From assembly GCA_038087875.1 (NCBI GenBank), contig CM075988.1, positions 9,364,001 to 9,428,000 on the forward strand: a stretch of 64,000 nucleotides of DNA, read 5' to 3'. Below are positions 4,522 through 51,400 of this stretch, piece by piece. The position numbers were made by a program, and so were the translations under genes. The notes under the pieces were generated by a model. The model saw only the letters and a program-made list of their open reading frames with translations, made no database searches and had not been told where the DNA came from. The stretch's first letter is position 1, and each line of letters begins with the position of its first letter. Source of the DNA: Malacoraja senta (Eukaryota).

Positions 4522-5217
4522 TCTGGATTGTCTCTATGCTCCTCAGACAAATATTACATCTCCCGCAGGCACCGGTTGCAGCCTTTGATTCATTATGCCA
4601 ACTACACCCAATTTTCTAGAACAGTTCCCATGCGATTGAAATGACTGAGGGCTTTCTTATCCCATTTATCTGACTTACCAACAGAGTCCACTCATCGCTG
4701 TAAAAGCTGTCAGTCGTGCCCAAGATACTTGTGGAAACAGAGAACTGCAGGTTCTCTTTCCCAGTTCTGTCAAAGAGTTTTCAACTTGAAACATAAGTTC
4801 TGTTTTTCTTTCTGTAGCTGCTGCCTGATTTGCTGAGTGTTTTCAGCATGTTTTATGTTTTTAGTTCAGATTTCCATCATCTGCAGTGTGTTTTATAAAT
4901 GCAAATATGTTGTCAAACTGGAAAGCGTGGAGGGAAGATTAATGAGGATGGTGCCAGAACTTGAGGCCTGAGCTATCGAGAGAGATTGAGTAGGTTAGGA
5001 GCCAATTCCTAGAGTGCAGGAGTATGAGGGGGGATCCTATAGAGGTGAATGAAATCATGAGAGAAATAGATCAGGTACTATCGCAACATTTAAGAAACAT
5101 TTAGACAGGTACATGGACAGGACAGATTTAGAGAGATACTAGACTAAGTGGGACCCGTTGGGTCCCATGTTCACATGATTTATCTAAAATCAATATACAG
5201 TGCAAACAGGAAGTTGT

Positions 5218-5485
5218 CAAGTGCAGTTTCCTACCACTTCAAGCAAGGTGCAAGGCCACCAAACTCAAGTGCAGTTTCCTTCCACTTCAAGCAGGGTGCA
5301 GGGCCACCAAACTTAAGTGCAGTTTCCTGCCACTTCAAGCAGGGTGCAAGGCCACCAAACTCAAGTGCAGTTTCATGCCATTTCAAGCAGGGTGCAAGGC
5401 CACCAAATTCAAATGCAGTTTCATACCATTTCATGCAGGGTGCAAGGCCACCACATTCAAATGCAGTTTTTTACCAAGCAGGGTG
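5218..5485. repeat. 48-bp tandem repeat, ~5.5 copies, inside Helitron
   Basis: Unit caagtgcagtttcctaccacttcaagcaaggtgcaaggccaccaaact, no spacers. Confidence 0.95.
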
Positions 5486-14478: not shown

Positions 14479-17211
14479 TATTTTACTTCGGAGTCACGTG
14501 AGTGACTACGTGAAGAACCCCGCCAGTGCCCCTGCGCGTCATTACGTCAGACGCCTTGACGCAAACGGACGTGAGGAGCAGAGCTCCTCCGGTGGTTTGT
14601 AGTTTTTACAACTACAAGGTAAGTAGAAACTTTTAAAAGTATTTCCAGGTCCGTTTTCTGTGGGTCTATGGGATTTTTTCACAGACGCCATGGAAAAAAC
14701 GGGCAGGGGGAAGAGGCGTGCGATTCAGCCGGCAGAAAGTCGGGAATCTCCGGGTACAAGCCAGCCACCTCTAACCCCAGTACAGTCACCAGCGGTGAGC
14801 ATAGCGACTGTGGACCTGGGACTGATGAAAACTCAGTCAGCGCCTGTCGAGCGAAATGCCAAGTTTAAATCCAGATGGCCCACGGAGGAGGAGTGCCAGG
14901 CAATGGAAGCTCCAGGGCTAGATACTGCCTTTGTGCGTATTAGCCAGATGGAAAGCCTTCTGCATAGGCTATTGGAGCAAAGTACACTCAGGGAGTGTAC
15001 TGAAATACAAGCTGCTGGAAGCAGCCTAACAGCACCTGGCACAGGGCTGATGGAATGCACCCTCCGAGATGAGGAGAGTGCTATGGGTCATGAGAGTTCA
15101 GACCCCGACTCTGACGGCGAGGCTATACAAGGTGAAGAACTGCAGATACCAGATATTCCACCACTGGCAGTATGCTTCGCTGCCCTGTCAGGGTCAGGAG
15201 AGCCACTAGGAGATGAGCTGGCCTCCTTAATAAATTACTTGGTTTCCCATCAGCTGGAACAGCAGGAGATGGATGATACTGCAAGAAAGCATGAGATCCC
15301 AAGCAACTGTGTGTTGCTGAAAGCACCAGCAGTGAATCAAATCATCTGGAATCAATTGAGTATGACTATGAGAACTCAAGAATTAAAATTGCAGAGAATA
15401 TTAAAGCTGCTGGGTTCTGGAATAACTGCTTTTGCCAGAATAGCAGATAAAAGCCAAGAGATGACGGAGTTGCATCAGAAAGCACTGGGGTTGCTATGCA
15501 GCACCCACTTCGAGATCAATTGTCCGAGAAAAGGTGCTATACGGCCTATTATGAATCCGAAATTCACAGCACTCTGCAAACCAAGTAATGTACAATTACC
15601 CAACTTACTCTTTGGAGAGGATCTCGAGAGATGTGTTAAAGAGTTGGAAGATGAAGCGAAAACAGGATTGATGAAAACATCAATGGTTGTAAAGTCTGTA
15701 AAGAGGAATATCCTTTCAGACGTCATATGGATCCTGGACAGGACCAAGTCGCTCATTAACGCAGGGACGTAGCTGGCGGCCTGCAGCGGGAGCAAGAACC
15801 AGTGAGGGTGCTTCTGGGAGAATCCAGGAATCTCAGAATACTCAAATGACTCAAGAGGTAGGTGGACCTGGTTCTCATGGGAACATACTAACTGGATTAA
15901 GTCCAAAAGTTGAAGGCAGATTATGTCTCTTCTATAAACAATTGGAAGATTACTTCAGATGTGGTAATTCTGAATAGTATACAAGGATTTCGAATTGAAT
16001 TCAATCCAAATTATGATTTGCCTGTCCAGCATGTTCCTAGCAGAATTCTCCGCTTCTTCGGCATGGACTTGAAAGGCCGAGATGGCCTGTTTTCCTGCTG
16101 TAATTGTCATATGATTTGCACAAAAAGAAGTGATGGAGGTTCAAGCTGCGTTTCAAACCCTATATATAAAAGATGTTATTGAAAATTCAGTCTACCAAAT
16201 TCACCAATTTGTGTTAAATATATTCCCTCGATCAAAAAAAGAACGTCCACTCCCAGAATATTCACAAAATTATTAAAACCAATTCTGGGGTTGCTAAGAA
16301 GCCAGGGGCATGTACTAATGGCATATTTTGGATGATGTCCTGATTAAAGGAAGGACAAAACTGTCAACAGAAGCATCTGTGGCAGTTGTGAAATCAACTT
16401 TTGAAAGTTTGGGGTTTCTAATTCATCCAAAGGAATCAAGGTTAACACCATGTACCTCGATTGATTATTTGGGGTTCACAATTGATTCAGTCCAAATGAA
16501 AATTACTTTGCCCAGTGAAAAAAGGGTGGAGTTGACTAAAGATTGCAGTAATCTGGTAAACGAGCAAAAACCCTCAATCAGACAGGTGGCTCGAGTACTG
16601 GGAAAATTAGTAGCAGCATTCCCAGCAGTCCAATTCGGACAATTACATTATCATCAGCTGAAGAGAGTTAAAGAACGGGCACTGAGAATGCATGTTGGTC
16701 ATTTTGATAGGACCATGCAACTGCCAACAAATGCTGTTTCTGATCTGCAGTGGTGGATTCTACATGTCTCAAGCAGTTCCAGCAGAGTGCTGATTGAACA
16801 AACCTTCCATAATATTACAAACAGATGCCAGTGCACTAGGATGGGGTGAAACTGACTTAGCATCTAGCTGCGGAGACAGATGGAATCAGGAAGAGTCATT
16901 GTTACTGCAGACATGGGCAGTTAACTATTTGGAGTTTTAGGATGTTTCTATGGACTCCAAGGTTATTGTTCTAACACAACTAAAAGGCATGTTCAAGTTC
17001 AGATTGATAAACACAACAGCAATTGCCTATATTAATGATATGGATGAAATCAAGTCAGGGTCATGTGACAAAATGGCTAATCAACTTTGGACTGGGTGTA
17101 TTGAAAAGAATATTTGGATTTCAGCTATATCTACCAGGTAGAATGAACACGATAGCAGACACCAGGTCACGAAAGTTCCATGATAATAAGAATGGATGTT
17201 GAATAGAGAGG
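14479..17211 (+). mobile_element. DIRS1-like copy 2 (5' half, interrupted by copy 3)
   Basis: Left terminus tattttacttcggagtcacgtgagtgactacgtgaag; long ORF1; RT/RNase H remnants (ORF 16328-16849). Confidence 0.95.
14690..15772 (+). pseudogene. DIRS ORF1 (gag-like), largely open; C-terminus frameshifted
   Basis: MEKTGRGKRR... open for ~360 aa; homologous to broken ORF1s in the other three copies; copy 3 continues KRKYPFRRH where this copy shifts frame. Confidence 0.8.
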
Positions 17212-32419: not shown

Positions 32420-33080
32420 GTGCTCGGTGTGTCTATCATCACCGACAAGCCGAGGATTTCGCTGCCGGTCTCAAACGTCGATCTACAGTTTCAGGTGGAC
32501 ACTGGTGCGGCTGTGTCGCTAGTGGGTCAGGACATCTGGGAGAGGATCGGATCGCCGAAACTGAAACCGGCCAACATCCGATTTTCAGATACGGACGACA
32601 GTCCATTCCCACGAAAGGCAAATGCACTGTCGCCGTTTCCTGTAATGGTATGACACAGATGTTGCCGCTGATCGTCGTTGGTAAAGAAGGTACATCCCTG
32701 TGTGTCATCGACTGGATCCATGCTTTCAAGCTTGACATGAACGCCTTGATCTATGATGGATCAACTATGGTATTGTCATGTACCACGGATTGCAACATGA
32801 TCAGCAAGTGCAAGAATAACCTACGATAATAGGACGTCTAATGGCACTGGTCCAAAGAGTGTGACCATGCATTCACCAGGTTGAAGGAGATGCTCGCCCA
32901 GAAGACGCGTTTGGTCCACTATGACCCATCGAAGCCGATCTCGCTGGCCGCCGATGCATCACCATATGGTCATGGAGCTGTAATCTCACAAACGGCGCCG
33001 AACAGCAAGGAAGAACCAATTGCGTTCGCATCCAAAACACTGAAGACCGCCGAGAAAAACTACACCCAAGTGGAGAAAGA
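32420..33080 (+). pseudogene. Gypsy pol remnants: aspartic protease and RNase H-like; RT core and integrase deleted
   Basis: FQVDTGAAVSLV; LVHYDPSKPISLAADASPYG.GAVI...PIAFASKTL..AEKNYTQVEKE. Confidence 0.88.
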
Positions 33081-34540
33081 ACAGCATACAGATAAAGCAA
33101 ATACTGATATCTATTCAAAAGGGAACACTGAGGAAAACTTTGTTGATTCTGAGCCTTTAGCAAGAGTTGTGAAATGCAAAAAAGGCTGGAAAAAAAGAGT
33201 GAAGCTTGGTCCAGCTAAATGGAGACGTTCAAACTGGAAAGGGGGAATGCGATGTTTGGTGGACTGTGTGGGGTGGTCCCGTGCAGCATGTGGGGCTGCA
33301 CAGGACAAAGGGAGATGTTTTGTATATAGTTTATCCTGCCTGTAGACAGTGTGTGTGTGTGCAGCCATTTTGAGCTGCCTTGCTGCCAGCATTGTGTAAA
33401 GCATTAAAGACTTCTGTTGTAAATTGAAGACTCTCAAGTTTTGTGCAGACCTAGAAAGCGTACGTACAAGATCTGTAGAGCCAGCAGTCTTAGTCAGAGA
33501 AAGATGTAAAGAGAAGAACAGAATGCATGGGGAGGGTGAGGTCTGGATCCATTTGTGTGGTATCTATCTCCTTTAGCAAGGTAGGGGTGATTTCCTATTG
33601 AAAACCAACCATTGCAAAATTAAACCTTCCATCTCCAGGAGCAGTTCACTAGAGTACAGCTGTTACTTTCTCAGTCATTCATGCATGCAATGACATTATC
33701 AATGTGCACAGCCCTTATTTCTGCCTTACCACAGACATTAGATGAATAATGTGCATACTAGTATCTGTGTGTCCATGCCGAACATGATGCCAAGTTAGGA
33801 CACAGCGTGCTGAAGCAATTCCGTGGGTGAGGCAGCATCTCCGTAGAACATGGATCTAGGTGACATTTCAGGTCAGGATATTTCTTCAGGCAGGTTAAAC
33901 CATTCTCCCATTCCTGCATGTGATCCATATCCCTCCATTCCCTGCATATCCATGTGCTTAGCCAAAAGCTTGGTAAATGTCACTATTGTATCTGTTTCCA
34001 CCACCACCCCTTGATTATCTGATGAGGTTTTATCCAAATGGGTACGTGACAAATTCAACGTGAGGAGTCCGATTATGTTCTTTTTTAATTTGCATTGTAA
34101 AATATCACCACGATTTCAAAATGTATCTATCACGCCATGCAACTCAATTTCAACATCACAAAATCAGACATCATTCACTCAGTAAGAGTATTCCAAACTC
34201 ACTGGAATAAAAAAAACACATTTAACTTTGTTTCCTGGCCAGTTATTGCGACCCTTTATTCTTCTGCTATGGACCCTACAGTCAATAAAAATGGTTTCTT
34301 CTTATTTCACAAAACCAATCATCTTGAACACTATTAAATCGGCCTATAATCTTCTTTACCCTAATCCTATGTGAACATAAAGTCAATGCTCCCAGCCTCT
34401 GGTTTATTGACCAAATGCCCCATTTATAAGCAGTTATCTGATACATAAAGCGATATTAATTAATAACTGGATTTTGTAACTTTATGTGTCCCAAGCTAGA
34501 CTGTGGAAGATTGTGAAAATTCTTGAAAATAATTAATATG

Positions 34541-47791: not shown

Positions 47792-48095
47792 TTTTAGTTT
47801 AGAGATACAGCGCAGAATCAGGCCCTTCGGCCCACCGAGTCCGCACTGACCAGCGATCCCCTACATTAACACTATCCTACACACACTAGGGACAATTTAC
47901 ATTTATACCAAACCAATTAACCTACAAACCTGTACGTCTTTGGAGTGTGGGAGGAAACCGAAGATGTCGGTGAAAAGACATGTAGGTCAAGGGGAGAACA
48001 TATAAATTCCGTAAAGACAAGCACCCAGTCAGGATCGAACCGGGGTCCCTGGTGCTGTAAAGCAGCAACTCTACCACTGTGCCACCACGCTGCCC
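47792..48095 (-). mobile_element. V-SINE, full length
   Basis: Family match on minus strand. Confidence 0.88.
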
Positions 48096-48319
48096 CTTCA
48101 CCACCCTTCACAGCCTCCTCTGCTTGAAATGTTGAGCCAATTTATGCATCTCATGTTAGTTTCCTAATTCTTTTTGTTTGCAAAGTCTGTCCATCTGCAC
48201 CTTGCCTTAAGATCTTAATTATTATTCATTGGAATTTATAGCCTAATCTTCAATGTTAGTTCATTTGTACCGTCTACTTCCACCCACTTCATGGATCTGG
48301 GCATTTTGATTGTCCTGAT

Positions 48320-48458
48320 CTTCTTCTTCTTTCATGTGGCGTGCACAGCCTAAAGTTGTTGGACAACTTGTTCTAATTGATCTTCCATTTGTGCACGTCA
48401 AGTTGATTGCATTAGTCGATATGGGACGGACCACGTGAAGGTTGCAATCTTCCACCCC
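48320..48458 (-). mobile_element. 139-bp non-autonomous retroposon with (GAA)n tail and 11-bp TSD
   Basis: TSD ATTGTCCTGAT at 48309-48319 and 48459-48469; tail gaaagaagaagaag. Confidence 0.9.
48405..48458 (-). ncRNA. Minimal HDV/CPEB3-like self-cleaving ribozyme motif
   Basis: GGGGUGG-AA-GAUUGCA-ACC-UUCACGU-GGU-CCGUCCC-AUAUCGA-CUAA-UGCAAUC parses as P1-J1/2-P2-P3-L3-P3'-P1'-(no P4)-J4/2-P2'. Confidence 0.8.
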
Positions 48459-48481
48459 ATTGTCCTGATGAAATATTTCTA

Positions 48482-51400
48482 ATTTTACTTCAGAGTCACG
48501 TGAGTAACTACGTGAAGAAGACCCGTCAGGGCGCATGCTCGTCATTACGTCGGACGCATTGGCGCACGGACCAGCGGGAGGACAGAGCTCCTCCTGTGGT
48601 AAGTACTTTTGAAGTACTTTTAAAGTAGTTTTAAAACTCCAGCTAAGTGGGAAACTTAGCTGGAGTGAAAAGTTCCTTTGCTGTGGTGCCGTGCTCTGTG
48701 TTTTTTGTTACAGGCAGCACCATGGTGAAGACGAGCAGGGGGAGGGGAGCTGCAGGTAAAGCATAGGAGAGCCGCGGGAATGCGGTCAGTGAGCGGCTGC
48801 CTCGTACCCCTGCACAGTCGCCGACCGGGAGCGGGGCTACTTCAGACTTAGTGCTAAAAAGCACCAAAGCCAACGCCAGTCGGGCGTAAGGCACGGGGAA
48901 GTCTGGGAGGCCCTCGGATTCAACTGAGTCGGGCCACAACGAGCCTGTACGGGGCTGGAGACGTTTTTTAAACGGTTCTCCCAAATGGAGCACCTCATTC
49001 AGAGGTTGCTCCAGAAACGCCCACTCCGGGGGAGTAGTTGTGTGGGCGGTAGGCTGCAGAAAGGCCATGCCGGCAGCACCTGGTAGAGGGCTGCTTAAAG
49101 CACCCTCATGCGTGAGGTAAGTGCAGAGGGTCAGCTACGTTCTGACCCGAACTCTGACGGAGACTTGGAATTTAGTGAAGAATGGCCGTTGTCAGAGGTC
49201 CATTCTCTGGCAACACGATTCGCTGTCCCGTCAGAGTATGGAGTGCCACTGGGAGAAGAGCTGGCCTCCCTCCACAATATAGAGGCTGCTGGATAGTACC
49301 CTCATTGAAAAGGCGCTTGCAGAGGGTCAGCTCAGTTCTGACCCGACTCTGACGGAGACTTTGTTGACTAGCGAAGAACGGCCGTTGTCAGAGGTCCATT
49401 CTCTAGCAGCACAATTCGCTGTCCCGTCAGAGTATGGAGTGCCACTGGGAAAGCGAAGACGGCCGTTGTCAGAGTTCCCATCTCTGGCAGTACGATTCGC
49501 TGTCCAGTCAGAGTCTGGAATCACCATGAAACAGGAGACCGGGGTAACTGCGAGTTGCTGAAAGTGCCAGCAGTGAACCGGGTGATATGGAGCCAGATGG
49601 ACGTGGGCGTGCAGTGCCCAGGAGATGAAGCTGCAGAGAATCCTGAAATACTTGGCTCAGGAATCACAGCGTTCGTAAGAACGGTGGATGGAGGGCATGT
49701 GTCGGAGATGCAGCAAGAGGTACAAGGGTTGCTTTGTAGCACCCATTTTGAGATAAATTGTCTCAGGGAAAGTGCCATTCGGCCCACCATTAATTCCAAG
49801 ATTGCAGTATTTTTCCAGCCCAGCAACATACAGCCGGCCAACCTACTCTTCGGAGAGGACCTCGCCAAGAGTGTCAAGGATATGGATGACGAGGCAAAGA
49901 CGGTGGGCTTGATCAAGCCACCGTCAGTCGGCAAGTTTCCAAAAAAGAAAGTACCACTACAAACGAGGCTTGACCAGGAACAAGTCGGCCGGCAATGCAG
50001 ATGCGCAGGTGCATTCTGCTGCGGGAACATGGTCAAACATCGTATTTCCCGCCAGGAGCCGGGGACAACGTCATCCACCAGGCACCAAGGAGGTAGGTGG
50101 GCCTGGTTCTCAGGTGCACATATCAAATGTGACACAACATAAATCTGGGGTACATTACATCAGTTCTGGGATGAATGGAAGCAAATTACCTCAGCTCTGT
50201 TTATACAGAGTGTTATTCAAAGGTTTCGAATGGAGTTCAATCCAAATTGTGATTTGCACATTCAGCTTGTTCCTGGGAGAACTATTCAGTTTTCATTAAC
50301 AGAACAGATGGATGTTTAGACTGCGCTTGGAAGCTAAGGTGATAAAGGTGTAATTGTAAAGTTGGTTCACCAACCCCATCAATTTGTGTCTAATATTTTC
50401 CCAGGCCAAAAAAGGATGGGGGATGTAGTATAGACATTGTAAGATGGAATTGTCACTGCCAAGCAACTGGGTCAAGAGGATGCTATATGGCTACTATAGA
50501 GCTTAAAGATGCGCATTACTCAATGTCTGTTTATTTGCAGGATAAGGATTTGAAATTCACCTGGATGGACCAACTATGGCAACAAAATTGTTAAAACCTA
50601 TAATAGGCATGCTGAGAGGCCAGGGTCAGGTGCTCATGGCTTATCTCGATGATATCTTGATTACAGGGGTATCCAAGAGAACAGCTGAAGTAACCGGTGG
50701 TAGTTGTTACATCTAATTTTCAAAGATTGAGCATTATTCATCCAGTGAAATCCAAATTAACACCTGACTATTTGGGTTACAATTGATTCAATTAAGTGAC
50801 TCTGCCCAGGGTAAAAGGGTAGAGCTAATTGACAGCTGTATCAAGCTAATGGAGGCATTATGGATACATTTGGGTCACTATAATAGACCCATGCATTTAT
50901 CAGCAAAGGCTGTTTCTGATTTGCAATGGTGGCTTCACCATGTGTCCTGGAGTTATAGCAAGGTAATGCTTGACCAGCCTTCCATGATTTTGCAGATGAA
51001 TGTCAGTGCACTCGGGTGGGGTGTCATGGATATGAGTTTCAGCTGTGGAGGCAGATGGACTGAGCAAGAGTCATCGCTTCTGCAGACATGGGCAATTAAC
51101 TATTAAGAGGTTTTTATGGATAAGGCTTATTGCTCTAACAAATGTAATCTGCATGTTCAGTTTCAGATTGACAATACTACACAAGTGGCATATATATTAA
51201 TCACATCGGTGGAATCAAGTCGGTATTTTGTGACAGATTGGCTAATCAAATTTGGGCCTGGTGCATTGAAAAATATATTTCAGCTATTTATCTACCAGGT
51301 AGATTCTACATAGTAGCAGATGCCAAGTCACGAAAGTTCCATGACAACACAGATTGGATGTTGAACCAGGAGGTGTTCAATAATATAGTACTTATATATG

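Follow-up and report, generated by a model that had tools for sequence, protein, structure and literature searches.

What is the 139-nt element that lies on the minus strand at positions 48320-48458 of a 64,000-nucleotide stretch of Malacoraja senta DNA (contig CM075988.1, positions 9,364,001 to 9,428,000, the whole of which is here called the window), and what gives it so exact a 5' end? The original prediction, made from the letters alone, took it for a retroposon headed by a minimal ribozyme of the hepatitis delta virus (HDV) and CPEB3 type. The analysis reported here points the same way: the element is probably a decayed copy of a ribozyme-headed, non-autonomous retroposon of the kind that has no long terminal repeats (non-LTR), released by predicted self-cleavage and mobilized by a long interspersed element (LINE).

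The anatomy of the window copy can be read directly from both strands. The same 11-mer, ATTGTCCTGAT, stands at 48309-48319 and at 48459-48469, and between the two lies the element, which opens with GGGGTGGAAG and closes with GAAAGAAGAAGAAG. ARAGORN reports no transfer RNA (tRNA) gene in 48000-48800. The description first given of this locus, an 11-bp target site duplication (TSD) around a 139-bp minus-strand element with a (GAA)n tail and no tRNA, is thereby borne out. The parts are listed below, with element position p at window position 48459-p; family A denotes the short element wherever it occurs in the genome, and LINE A and LINE B are longer relatives described further on.

48459..48469, no strand: TSD, copy 5' of the element, ATCAGGACAAT on the element strand, with the identical 11-mer at 48309-48319
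48405..48458, minus strand: predicted P4-less HDV/CPEB3-type ribozyme head of 54 nt, degenerate in the window copy (sequence parse and covariation across families)
48388..48404, minus strand: element positions 55-71, the remainder of the stretch common with LINE A (alignments of L091/L116 and L078/L117)
48334..48387, minus strand: element positions 72-125, a body found only in the short element (9,071 genome matches to positions 86-115)
48320..48333, minus strand: microsatellite-like 3' tail GAAAG(AAG)3, its terminal ACAYGAAAGAAGAAG in common with the LINE B 3' end
48309..48319, no strand: TSD, copy 3' of the tail (direct reading of both strands)

The first 54 nt of the window copy follow the strand order of HDV-like ribozymes, P1-P2-P3-L3-P3'-P1'-P1.1-(P4)-J4/2-P2', a nested double pseudoknot, and their columns align with those of ribozymes that pass Rfam thresholds. 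Re-read helix by helix, the parse offered in the original prediction proved exact. By sequence, its segments are as follows.

48458-48452 with 48429-48423, minus strand: P1, GGGGUGG/CCGUCCC, five G-C and two G.U pairs
48451-48450, minus strand: J1/2
48449-48443 with 48411-48405, minus strand: P2, GAUUGCA/UGCAAUC, seven perfect pairs
48442-48440 with 48432-48430, minus strand: P3, ACC/GGU
48439-48433, minus strand: L3, UUCACGU
48422-48416, minus strand: 7-nt linker AUAUCGA, comprising the P1.1 strand and a substitute for P4
48415-48412, minus strand: J4/2, CUAA

The loop UUCACGU, identified at the outset as the L3 of the CPEB3 ribozyme, is present in the Rfam CPEB3 consensus. The 36-nt head occurs once in the window and in none of 100 shuffles. 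J4/2 opens with the catalytic-type C and continues to two A residues (CUAA in the window copy); in the alignment of ribozymes described below, conservation is at least 90% at C44 and complete at A46 and A47. The commonest head form, found in 20 of the 82 parsed ribozyme instances, reads GGGGUGG AA GAUUGCA ACC UUCACGU GGU CCGCCCU GU UUCGA CUAA UGCAAUC. It has the wobble G1.U36, the pair C22-G37, U38, the L3 residues A23CGU26 and no J1.1/4. The window copy has G1-C36 in place of G1.U36 and A37 in place of G37, with 'AU' rather than 'GU' after P1. It therefore lacks both the wobble of the commonest form and the C22-G37 pair of P1.1, which occurs in all 15 alignment rows. Having lost the wobble and the P1.1 G alike, the window copy is, by its sequence, probably inert, and these mutations at two core sites support the earlier caution that it may be inactive. 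The A in P1.1, attributed at that time to possible CpG decay, is indeed a copy-specific change from a family G, but it is not the product of CpG decay, because that G follows T in most copies (CCCTGT).

Database models see the window copy only faintly. A permissive Rfam scan of 48200-48600 returned a sole match, HDV-F-prausnitzii at 17.1 bits (E 0.81), which is weak and in the right register, the full model falling on exactly 48405-48458. The CPEB3 model gave no match to the window copy at E<=10, and no Rfam family attains its gathering score anywhere in the 64-kb window. When a copy with the commonest head form is compared with 4,227 Rfam families, the best match is CPEB3_ribozyme (19.5 bits, E 0.0026), followed by HDV-F-prausnitzii (16 bits), and both of these models place G1 at element base 1.

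Is the window copy one of many? BLAST of the element against its own 1.94-Gb assembly gave 720 first-look candidates, and all 40 that were scored are 94-100% identical and run from positions 1-3 to positions 135-139. Head positions 1-30, with up to three mismatches, have 8,895 matches in the genome (none in the reversed control), and body positions 86-115 have 9,071 (none in the control). Family A thus has about 9,000 copies. The near equality of the two counts, to be read with the proviso that the two segments may decay at different rates, implies that there is no excess of 5'-truncated copies. Among the 30 best-matching copies, which include two duplicates of one insertion each (L015/L024 and L016/L017), 29 begin with GGGG at base 1, and in at least 26, by eye, the (GAA)n tail is followed by a TSD of the copy's own, about 7-15 bp long. 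A less biased sample comprises the first 40 family A places in coordinate order, taken from a core-pattern search with 1,786 matches versus 39 in its control. Thirty-five of these align from base 1 and 39 within 3 nt, the DNA upstream is unrelated in all, and a simple script finds an exact TSD of at least 6 nt in 24. The original prediction had staked itself on homogeneous 5' ends and on an element boundary at the G of the predicted cleavage site; in 29 of the 30 best copies and in 35 of the 40 coordinate-ordered ones, the element does start at base 1, with unrelated DNA before G1. Contigs of three other organisms also break at 281/282 of the near-majority copy L103, which corresponds to element base 1, and so family A and its 5' boundary exist beyond this assembly. 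Around position 356 of L103 there is a separate irregularity: a consensus common to 55 RNA reads and several contigs diverges from the reference immediately before that position, which suggests that in one subfamily a short part of the body, near element positions 60-75, has been deleted or replaced.

These counts and ends bear on the most ordinary explanation of the locus, that it is the 5'-truncated 3' end of a LINE, or a short interspersed element (SINE) transcribed by RNA polymerase III (pol III), and that its HDV-like parse arose by chance. The explanation draws on the fact that any G/C-rich 54-mer can be forced into some helices, and that the window copy taken alone offers a 17-bit Rfam match with an E-value of 0.81. 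A truncated LINE end was rejected on the equal head and body counts and on the behavior of the copies, which neither extend upstream nor truncate. A pol III SINE was rejected as well: neither ARAGORN nor Rfam finds a classical head derived from tRNA, 7SL or 5S RNA. The term 'SINE-like' used for the element at first can be kept only loosely, since an internally deleted LINE derivative fits better than a pol III SINE. The remaining component, a chance parse, is taken up with the covariation below.

Two subfamilies of family A can be distinguished, a young one with ..GGAAG..CCGCCCU.. and an old one with ..GGGAG..CCACCCU... Their majority states differ at two positions within the 54-nt head and at six within positions 55-125, and the two head differences are structure-neutral, one lying in J1/2 and the other changing U5-A to U5.G. 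In the old subfamily, copies diverge from their own majority by 2.5% in the head, counted outside the selection pattern, and by 10.3% in the body, which, in a sample picked by exact core match, is suggestive of master genes that would have kept the head while the body drifted. As a further observation, many TSDs of copies L001-L030 (uncounted) either have A or AA at their start or share bases with the AAG repeat. Such TSDs would fit priming in which the nicked target and the (GAA)n tail pair by microhomology, a mode of priming that has been proposed for RTE-related retroposons (PMC6007223; the papers cited here by number are represented by excerpts, to which all statements drawn from them are limited).

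Where did the head come from? In the sample of 40 there are two copies, L078 (extended as L117) and L091 (extended as L116), whose match to the element stops at position 71. Past that position, L116 and L117 enter a reading frame, ..YQLNVEGMSRPK..DVLLVQEMH (also given as ..NVEGMS..DVLLVQEMH), that looks like a typical start of an apurinic/apyrimidinic (AP) endonuclease domain, and a weak Exo_endo_phos_2 match occurs further along the frame. An autonomous LINE sharing the head, which the original prediction had proposed to look for, is thus at hand in the RTE-like LINE A. Its 5' region has 33 candidates genome-wide, and L116 and L117 cover only its first ~1.3 kb, interrupted by other insertions. 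Family A consists of the first 71 nt of this rare LINE, a 54-nt body and a CACGAAAG(AAG)n tail. Since element positions 1-71 are common with LINE A, an arrangement of the kind found in internally deleted elements that share their 5' end with an autonomous LINE, the short element probably arose from an RTE-like LINE by internal deletion, as a non-autonomous derivative.

LINE A is not the only LINE in this genome with such a head. An atypical match among those to the core pattern brought up a sequence that has a complete P4 and reaches 54.5 bits with the CPEB3 model. When the genome was searched with the Rfam CPEB3 family (RF00622), 59 candidates were scored; 39 of them clear the gathering score, and the highest-scoring one has 64.2 bits. 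The 30 loci returned (L046-L075) make up at least five LINE-head families, B-F, whose P1, P2, P3 and P4 sequences differ. Examples from the Rfam search are listed here.

L048:1501-1573, minus strand: LINE head passing the CPEB3 model
L059:1501-1568, minus strand: LINE head passing the CPEB3 model
L060:1512-1574, plus strand: LINE head passing the CPEB3 model
L066:1501-1554, minus strand: LINE head passing the CPEB3 model

Family F, like family A, is without P4, and it passes the CPEB3 threshold at 36-44 bits. Family D, compared by eye, has most of P1, P2, P4 and the core in common with the Rfam CPEB3 consensus, including a compensated change from A-U to G-C in P2. Three side observations concern these heads. 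In all six family F loci inspected (L066, L068 and L072-L075), the base at predicted position 1 is T or A, with four Gs following; either P1 has 6 bp there and the opposite U is unpaired, or the first base was lost at insertion. A seventh type, G, at L045:6347-6433 on the minus strand, has GGGGAUC../..GAUCCCC, 'GG' after P1, a long P4 and an L3 of UCCUCGU, which is HDV-like rather than CPEB3-like; it scores 39.1 bits with the model built in this analysis. Finally, two CPEB3-model matches at G000:C8:937615-937735 (L056), a full one and a partial one separated by about 10 bp, suggest a partial tandem duplication of a family C ribozyme head.

What follows these heads is coding sequence. Two copies of family C, L047 and L056, each have a frame of about 500 aa that stays open from just past the ribozyme to the end of the locus. 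The L047 frame (496 aa) contains Exo_endo_phos domains, and the relatives of its protein are 900-1,050 aa long with endonuclease and reverse transcriptase (RT), mostly on contigs of ~3.0-3.4 kb, in hosts that include a fish, amphioxus, sea urchins, insects, crabs and a lizard. Eight of the 12 family C copies seen begin at the first ribozyme G, and the DNA upstream is unrelated. One copy of LINE B extends for 3.1 kb from the ribozyme to a ..GGACACGAAAGAAGAAG (GAA)n tail and has an RVT_1 match. Size, a single open reading frame (ORF), domain order and a microsatellite-like tail all fit RTE-like elements, a clade assignment made by architecture rather than from an RT tree. LINE B has also undergone internal deletion of its own, in a single instance: at L043:1001-1275 (plus strand), an independent derivative of ~270 bp has the LINE B head (a 5'-truncated ribozyme and the first part of the ORF) fused directly to the final ~68 bp of that LINE.

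Comparison across these families supports the fold. An alignment of 15 ribozymes (five from family A, two each from B, C and D, one from E and three from F) was drawn from 48 distinct sequences. With the full pseudoknotted structure, 94.3% of its cells pair, compared with 36-46% when partners are slid by 1-3 columns; in P1, the one sequence from family E is out of line by one column. Compensatory change is seen in 16 of the 24 pairs (P1 3/7, P2 6/7, P3 2/3 and P4 5/6), and the 74 double-change cells compare with a shuffled mean of 23.9, a count of 74 being reached in none of 500 shuffles. Helix conservation, the lack of which the original prediction had named as grounds for giving it up, is therefore evident in both the pairing and the two-sided changes. 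For an independent covariance model, 11 ribozymes were taken from families B, C, D and F and none from family A; the model was run over 67 of the 118 loci collected (all but L021-L041 and L046-L075). It finds 52 of 60 family A loci at E<=1, always with model positions 1-73 spanning element positions 1-54, and it scores the commonest head form at 29.1 bits (E 4.6e-5). From homology and covariation we infer that the family A head is a CPEB3-type HDV-like ribozyme, and self-cleavage would be its predicted activity. A parse by chance was rejected on the same results, namely the exact register in which a model free of family A finds 52 of 60 loci and the compensatory change in 16 of 24 pairs, and the whole of the ordinary explanation, truncated LINE end, pol III SINE or fortuitous fold, is very improbable.

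Several observations nevertheless weigh against a self-cleaving, LINE-mobilized retroposon, and they are of three kinds. The first concerns the ribozyme itself. Family A reaches no Rfam gathering score, its 17.1-19.5 bits comparing with thresholds of 35-44; in particular, the 19.5 bits of the commonest-form copy fall below the 35 bits of RF00622. The rows behind the covariation figures were hand-picked as intact or commonest, with degenerate copies omitted, and those from one family are not independent of each other. At E<=1 the independent model misses the window copy, along with seven further variants. Nested minimum free energy (MFE) values of family A heads are not better than those of shuffles (z -0.04 to +0.71). 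Nested folding recovers P1 and P3, the pseudoknot is outside the model, and the MFE result is best regarded as neutral. The second kind concerns the LINE. None of the LINE A copies at hand extends to the 3' end of that LINE, and only the last 15-16 nt of the element match the LINE B tail; BLAST of the element against 362 kb of collected genome sequence revealed no separate LINE 3' end with the element body. The third kind comes from RNA. None of the indexed sequencing runs that contain this stretch is recorded as RNA. A raw polyA RNA-seq run, X24, listed under the same study as one of those runs, was mapped on copy L103 together with three contig sets. There are 796 X24 reads on L103, on both strands, of which 786 lie only partly on the locus. 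Unrelated sequence is carried just before positions 281 and 282 by 92 and 86 reads, respectively, which thus cross the 5' junction and indicate that many element-bearing transcripts are uncut, and there is no pile-up of molecule starts or ends in X24 on L103, G1 included. The power of this test is low, as the library was selected for polyA and cut RNAs lose their cap or tail, reads of 151 nt exceed the element's 139 nt, many copies are decayed, and the run may come from a relative.

Three of these observations, the junction-crossing reads without a pile-up of starts at G1, the want of a thermodynamic excess over shuffles and the scores below Rfam thresholds, favor an alternative in which the P4-less head is homologous to HDV/CPEB3-type ribozymes but cuts negligibly or not at all in vivo. 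It would then have been kept as an element for binding RT or ribonucleoprotein, as a translation element or as an internal promoter, and the sharp 5' end would be a transcription start at G1. However, the commonest form of the family, which numbers ~9,000 copies in two subfamilies, keeps all the positions relevant to catalysis, namely G1.U36, C22-G37, U20/G25 and, in J4/2, the C and AA, and a second P4-less family, F, has the same architecture at 36-44 bits on the CPEB3 model. Moreover, P4-less HDV-like ribozymes cleave in vitro (PMC10879173), and RTE-type elements are described as promoterless (PMC6765202). We consider this alternative unlikely.

How would an element released by its own ribozyme spread? 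The family itself, its exact genomic 5' ends, the TSDs of ~7-15 bp, the full-length copies, the head shared with a LINE and the comparative support for the fold are directly seen. Cleavage, the identity of the mobilizing LINE and the choice of the 3' end are steps that we infer. The element, taken to be promoterless, would be transcribed within longer host or read-through RNAs. The ribozyme would then fold and cut 5' of G1, thereby setting the exact 5' end of the RNA, as suggested by fold, homology and genomic 5' ends. The endonuclease and RT of a LINE, putatively one of the RTE-like relatives, would prime on the CACGAAAG(AAG)n tail at the nicked target and copy to the RNA's 5' end, that is, by target-primed reverse transcription. 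As copying would proceed to the very 5' end, each new copy would regain a complete ribozyme and could be released again wherever it is transcribed.

The sequence adjoining the element, 48470-48610, is G+C-rich (51% GC in 48001-50000 versus ~42% around it) and has two CACGTG motifs and a splice-donor-like CTGTG|GTAAGT; it may be a promoter and first exon on the plus strand, with the element antisense just upstream. A Pfam scan of 157 of the 175 open frames of at least 75 aa in the window gave one credible match, to the RNase H domain of an LTR retrotransposon.

32842-33345, plus strand: LTR-retrotransposon fragment, RT_RNaseH_2 and RT_RNaseH (Pfam, E 9e-26)

A borderline TnpW match at 5148-5483 was taken as spurious, and the 381-aa open frame at 14627-15772 (plus strand) has no Pfam match.

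How much of this is familiar? Ruminski et al. reportedly described, in 2011, HDV-like ribozymes that head RTE and other non-LTR retrotransposons. Reviews place such ribozymes at the 5' terminus of RTE elements and of further non-LTR retrotransposons (PMC6765202, PMC8256844), and RTE and baggins elements are described as having HDV-like ribozymes and no promoters, with some non-autonomous SINEs also using ribozymes of this kind (PMC6765202). As excerpted, the RTE-type LINEs resemble the elements found here in having a ribozyme at the extreme 5' end of a promoterless ~3 kb LINE with endonuclease, RT and a microsatellite-like tail, the ribozyme being thought to free the element from read-through RNA. 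The present elements differ in the CPEB3 sequence type of their ribozymes and in a P4-less short derivative at ~9,000 copies. Internal deletion, too, has precedents. R2 has internally deleted parasites, the short internally deleted elements or SIDEs (PMC3414825; PMC6765202). R2 SIDEs and the NARTc elements of L1Tc, as the excerpts have it, have like family A kept the 5' ribozyme of a LINE, lost the ORF and been mobilized in trans; they also keep the 3' end of the LINE. R2 SIDEs are few and site-specific in ribosomal DNA, whereas family A is dispersed, numbers thousands and has variable TSDs, and its 3' half was not traced to a LINE. Another comparison is with Rex3, an RTE-related teleost LINE with endonuclease and RT, TSDs and a tail of (GAA)2(GATG)n (PMC6274825). 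The LINEs found here are like it in endonuclease plus RT, TSDs and a tail that opens with GAA repeats, a likeness by description only, and the excerpts of PMC6274825 do not mention a ribozyme for Rex3.

Two kinds of ribozyme invite comparison with the family A head. The P1.1 of the CPEB3 ribozyme consists of one G-C and one U-U pair, with G37, U38 and A23CGU26 (structure preprint, excerpted). The CPEB3 ribozyme (RF00622) and family A are alike in the L3 UUCACGU, G1.U, the 'GU' strand of P1.1, the absence of J1.1/4 and a J4/2 of the type C-purine-A-A. LINE families B-F pass the RF00622 gathering score, whereas family A, without P4 and with other helix sequences, does not (19.5 bits). The CPEB3 ribozyme is a single conserved intronic copy reported only from mammals, according to the excerpted text of PMC8233481; it is thus single-copy in the intron of one gene, whereas the ribozymes described here are multi-copy heads of retrotransposons. 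Open vitellogenin exons in the present genome make a therian mammal unlikely as its source. Minimal, P4-less HDV-like ribozymes and theta ribozymes, active in vitro, occur to ~99% in gut bacteriophages, often beside tRNAs (PMC10879173). They share with family A the absence of a P4 domain, a core of ~50-55 nt and the catalytic-type C in J4/2, as far as they are described there; they belong mostly to phages, whereas families A and F sit in animal retroposons.

What, then, does a CPEB3-type head on a LINE say about CPEB3 itself? Because family D, compared by eye, shares most of P1, P2, P4 and the core with the CPEB3 consensus, its likeness in helices and core points to common descent and hence to a retrotransposon origin of the mammalian CPEB3 ribozyme. 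Put in full, the CPEB3 intronic ribozyme, whose outgroup is yet to be reported, would be a domesticated 5' head of an RTE-like LINE lineage that still has at least five families here, and the 54-nt P4-less form of families A and F would be the smallest natural HDV-like ribozyme of eukaryotes and the driver of a ~9,000-copy burst of a promoterless retroposon. We put this forward tentatively, as a proposal with slightly less than an even chance of being right. A literature search found no statement of such an origin; vertebrate RTE ribozymes or a retrotransposon origin of CPEB3 may already be in print. As reviews describe RTE and baggins ribozymes, ribozyme SINEs and R2 SIDEs, LINEs with ribozyme heads, and the deletion derivatives of such LINEs, are already familiar as a system. 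What looks new is a P4-less core in a retroposon of an animal, together with the ~9,000-copy scale and the CPEB3 sequence type.

If true, these results would mean that a P4-less HDV-like ribozyme works in an animal genome at thousands of copies, and that CPEB3-type ribozymes occur outside the CPEB3 gene and, seemingly, outside mammals, as the heads of retrotransposons. Families A-G make up a natural mutational series in which the CPEB3-type core is combined with widely differing helices, and P4 is present in some members and absent from others. The LINE heads, in turn, could supply an outgroup for the CPEB3 ribozyme, which would make its origin directly testable.

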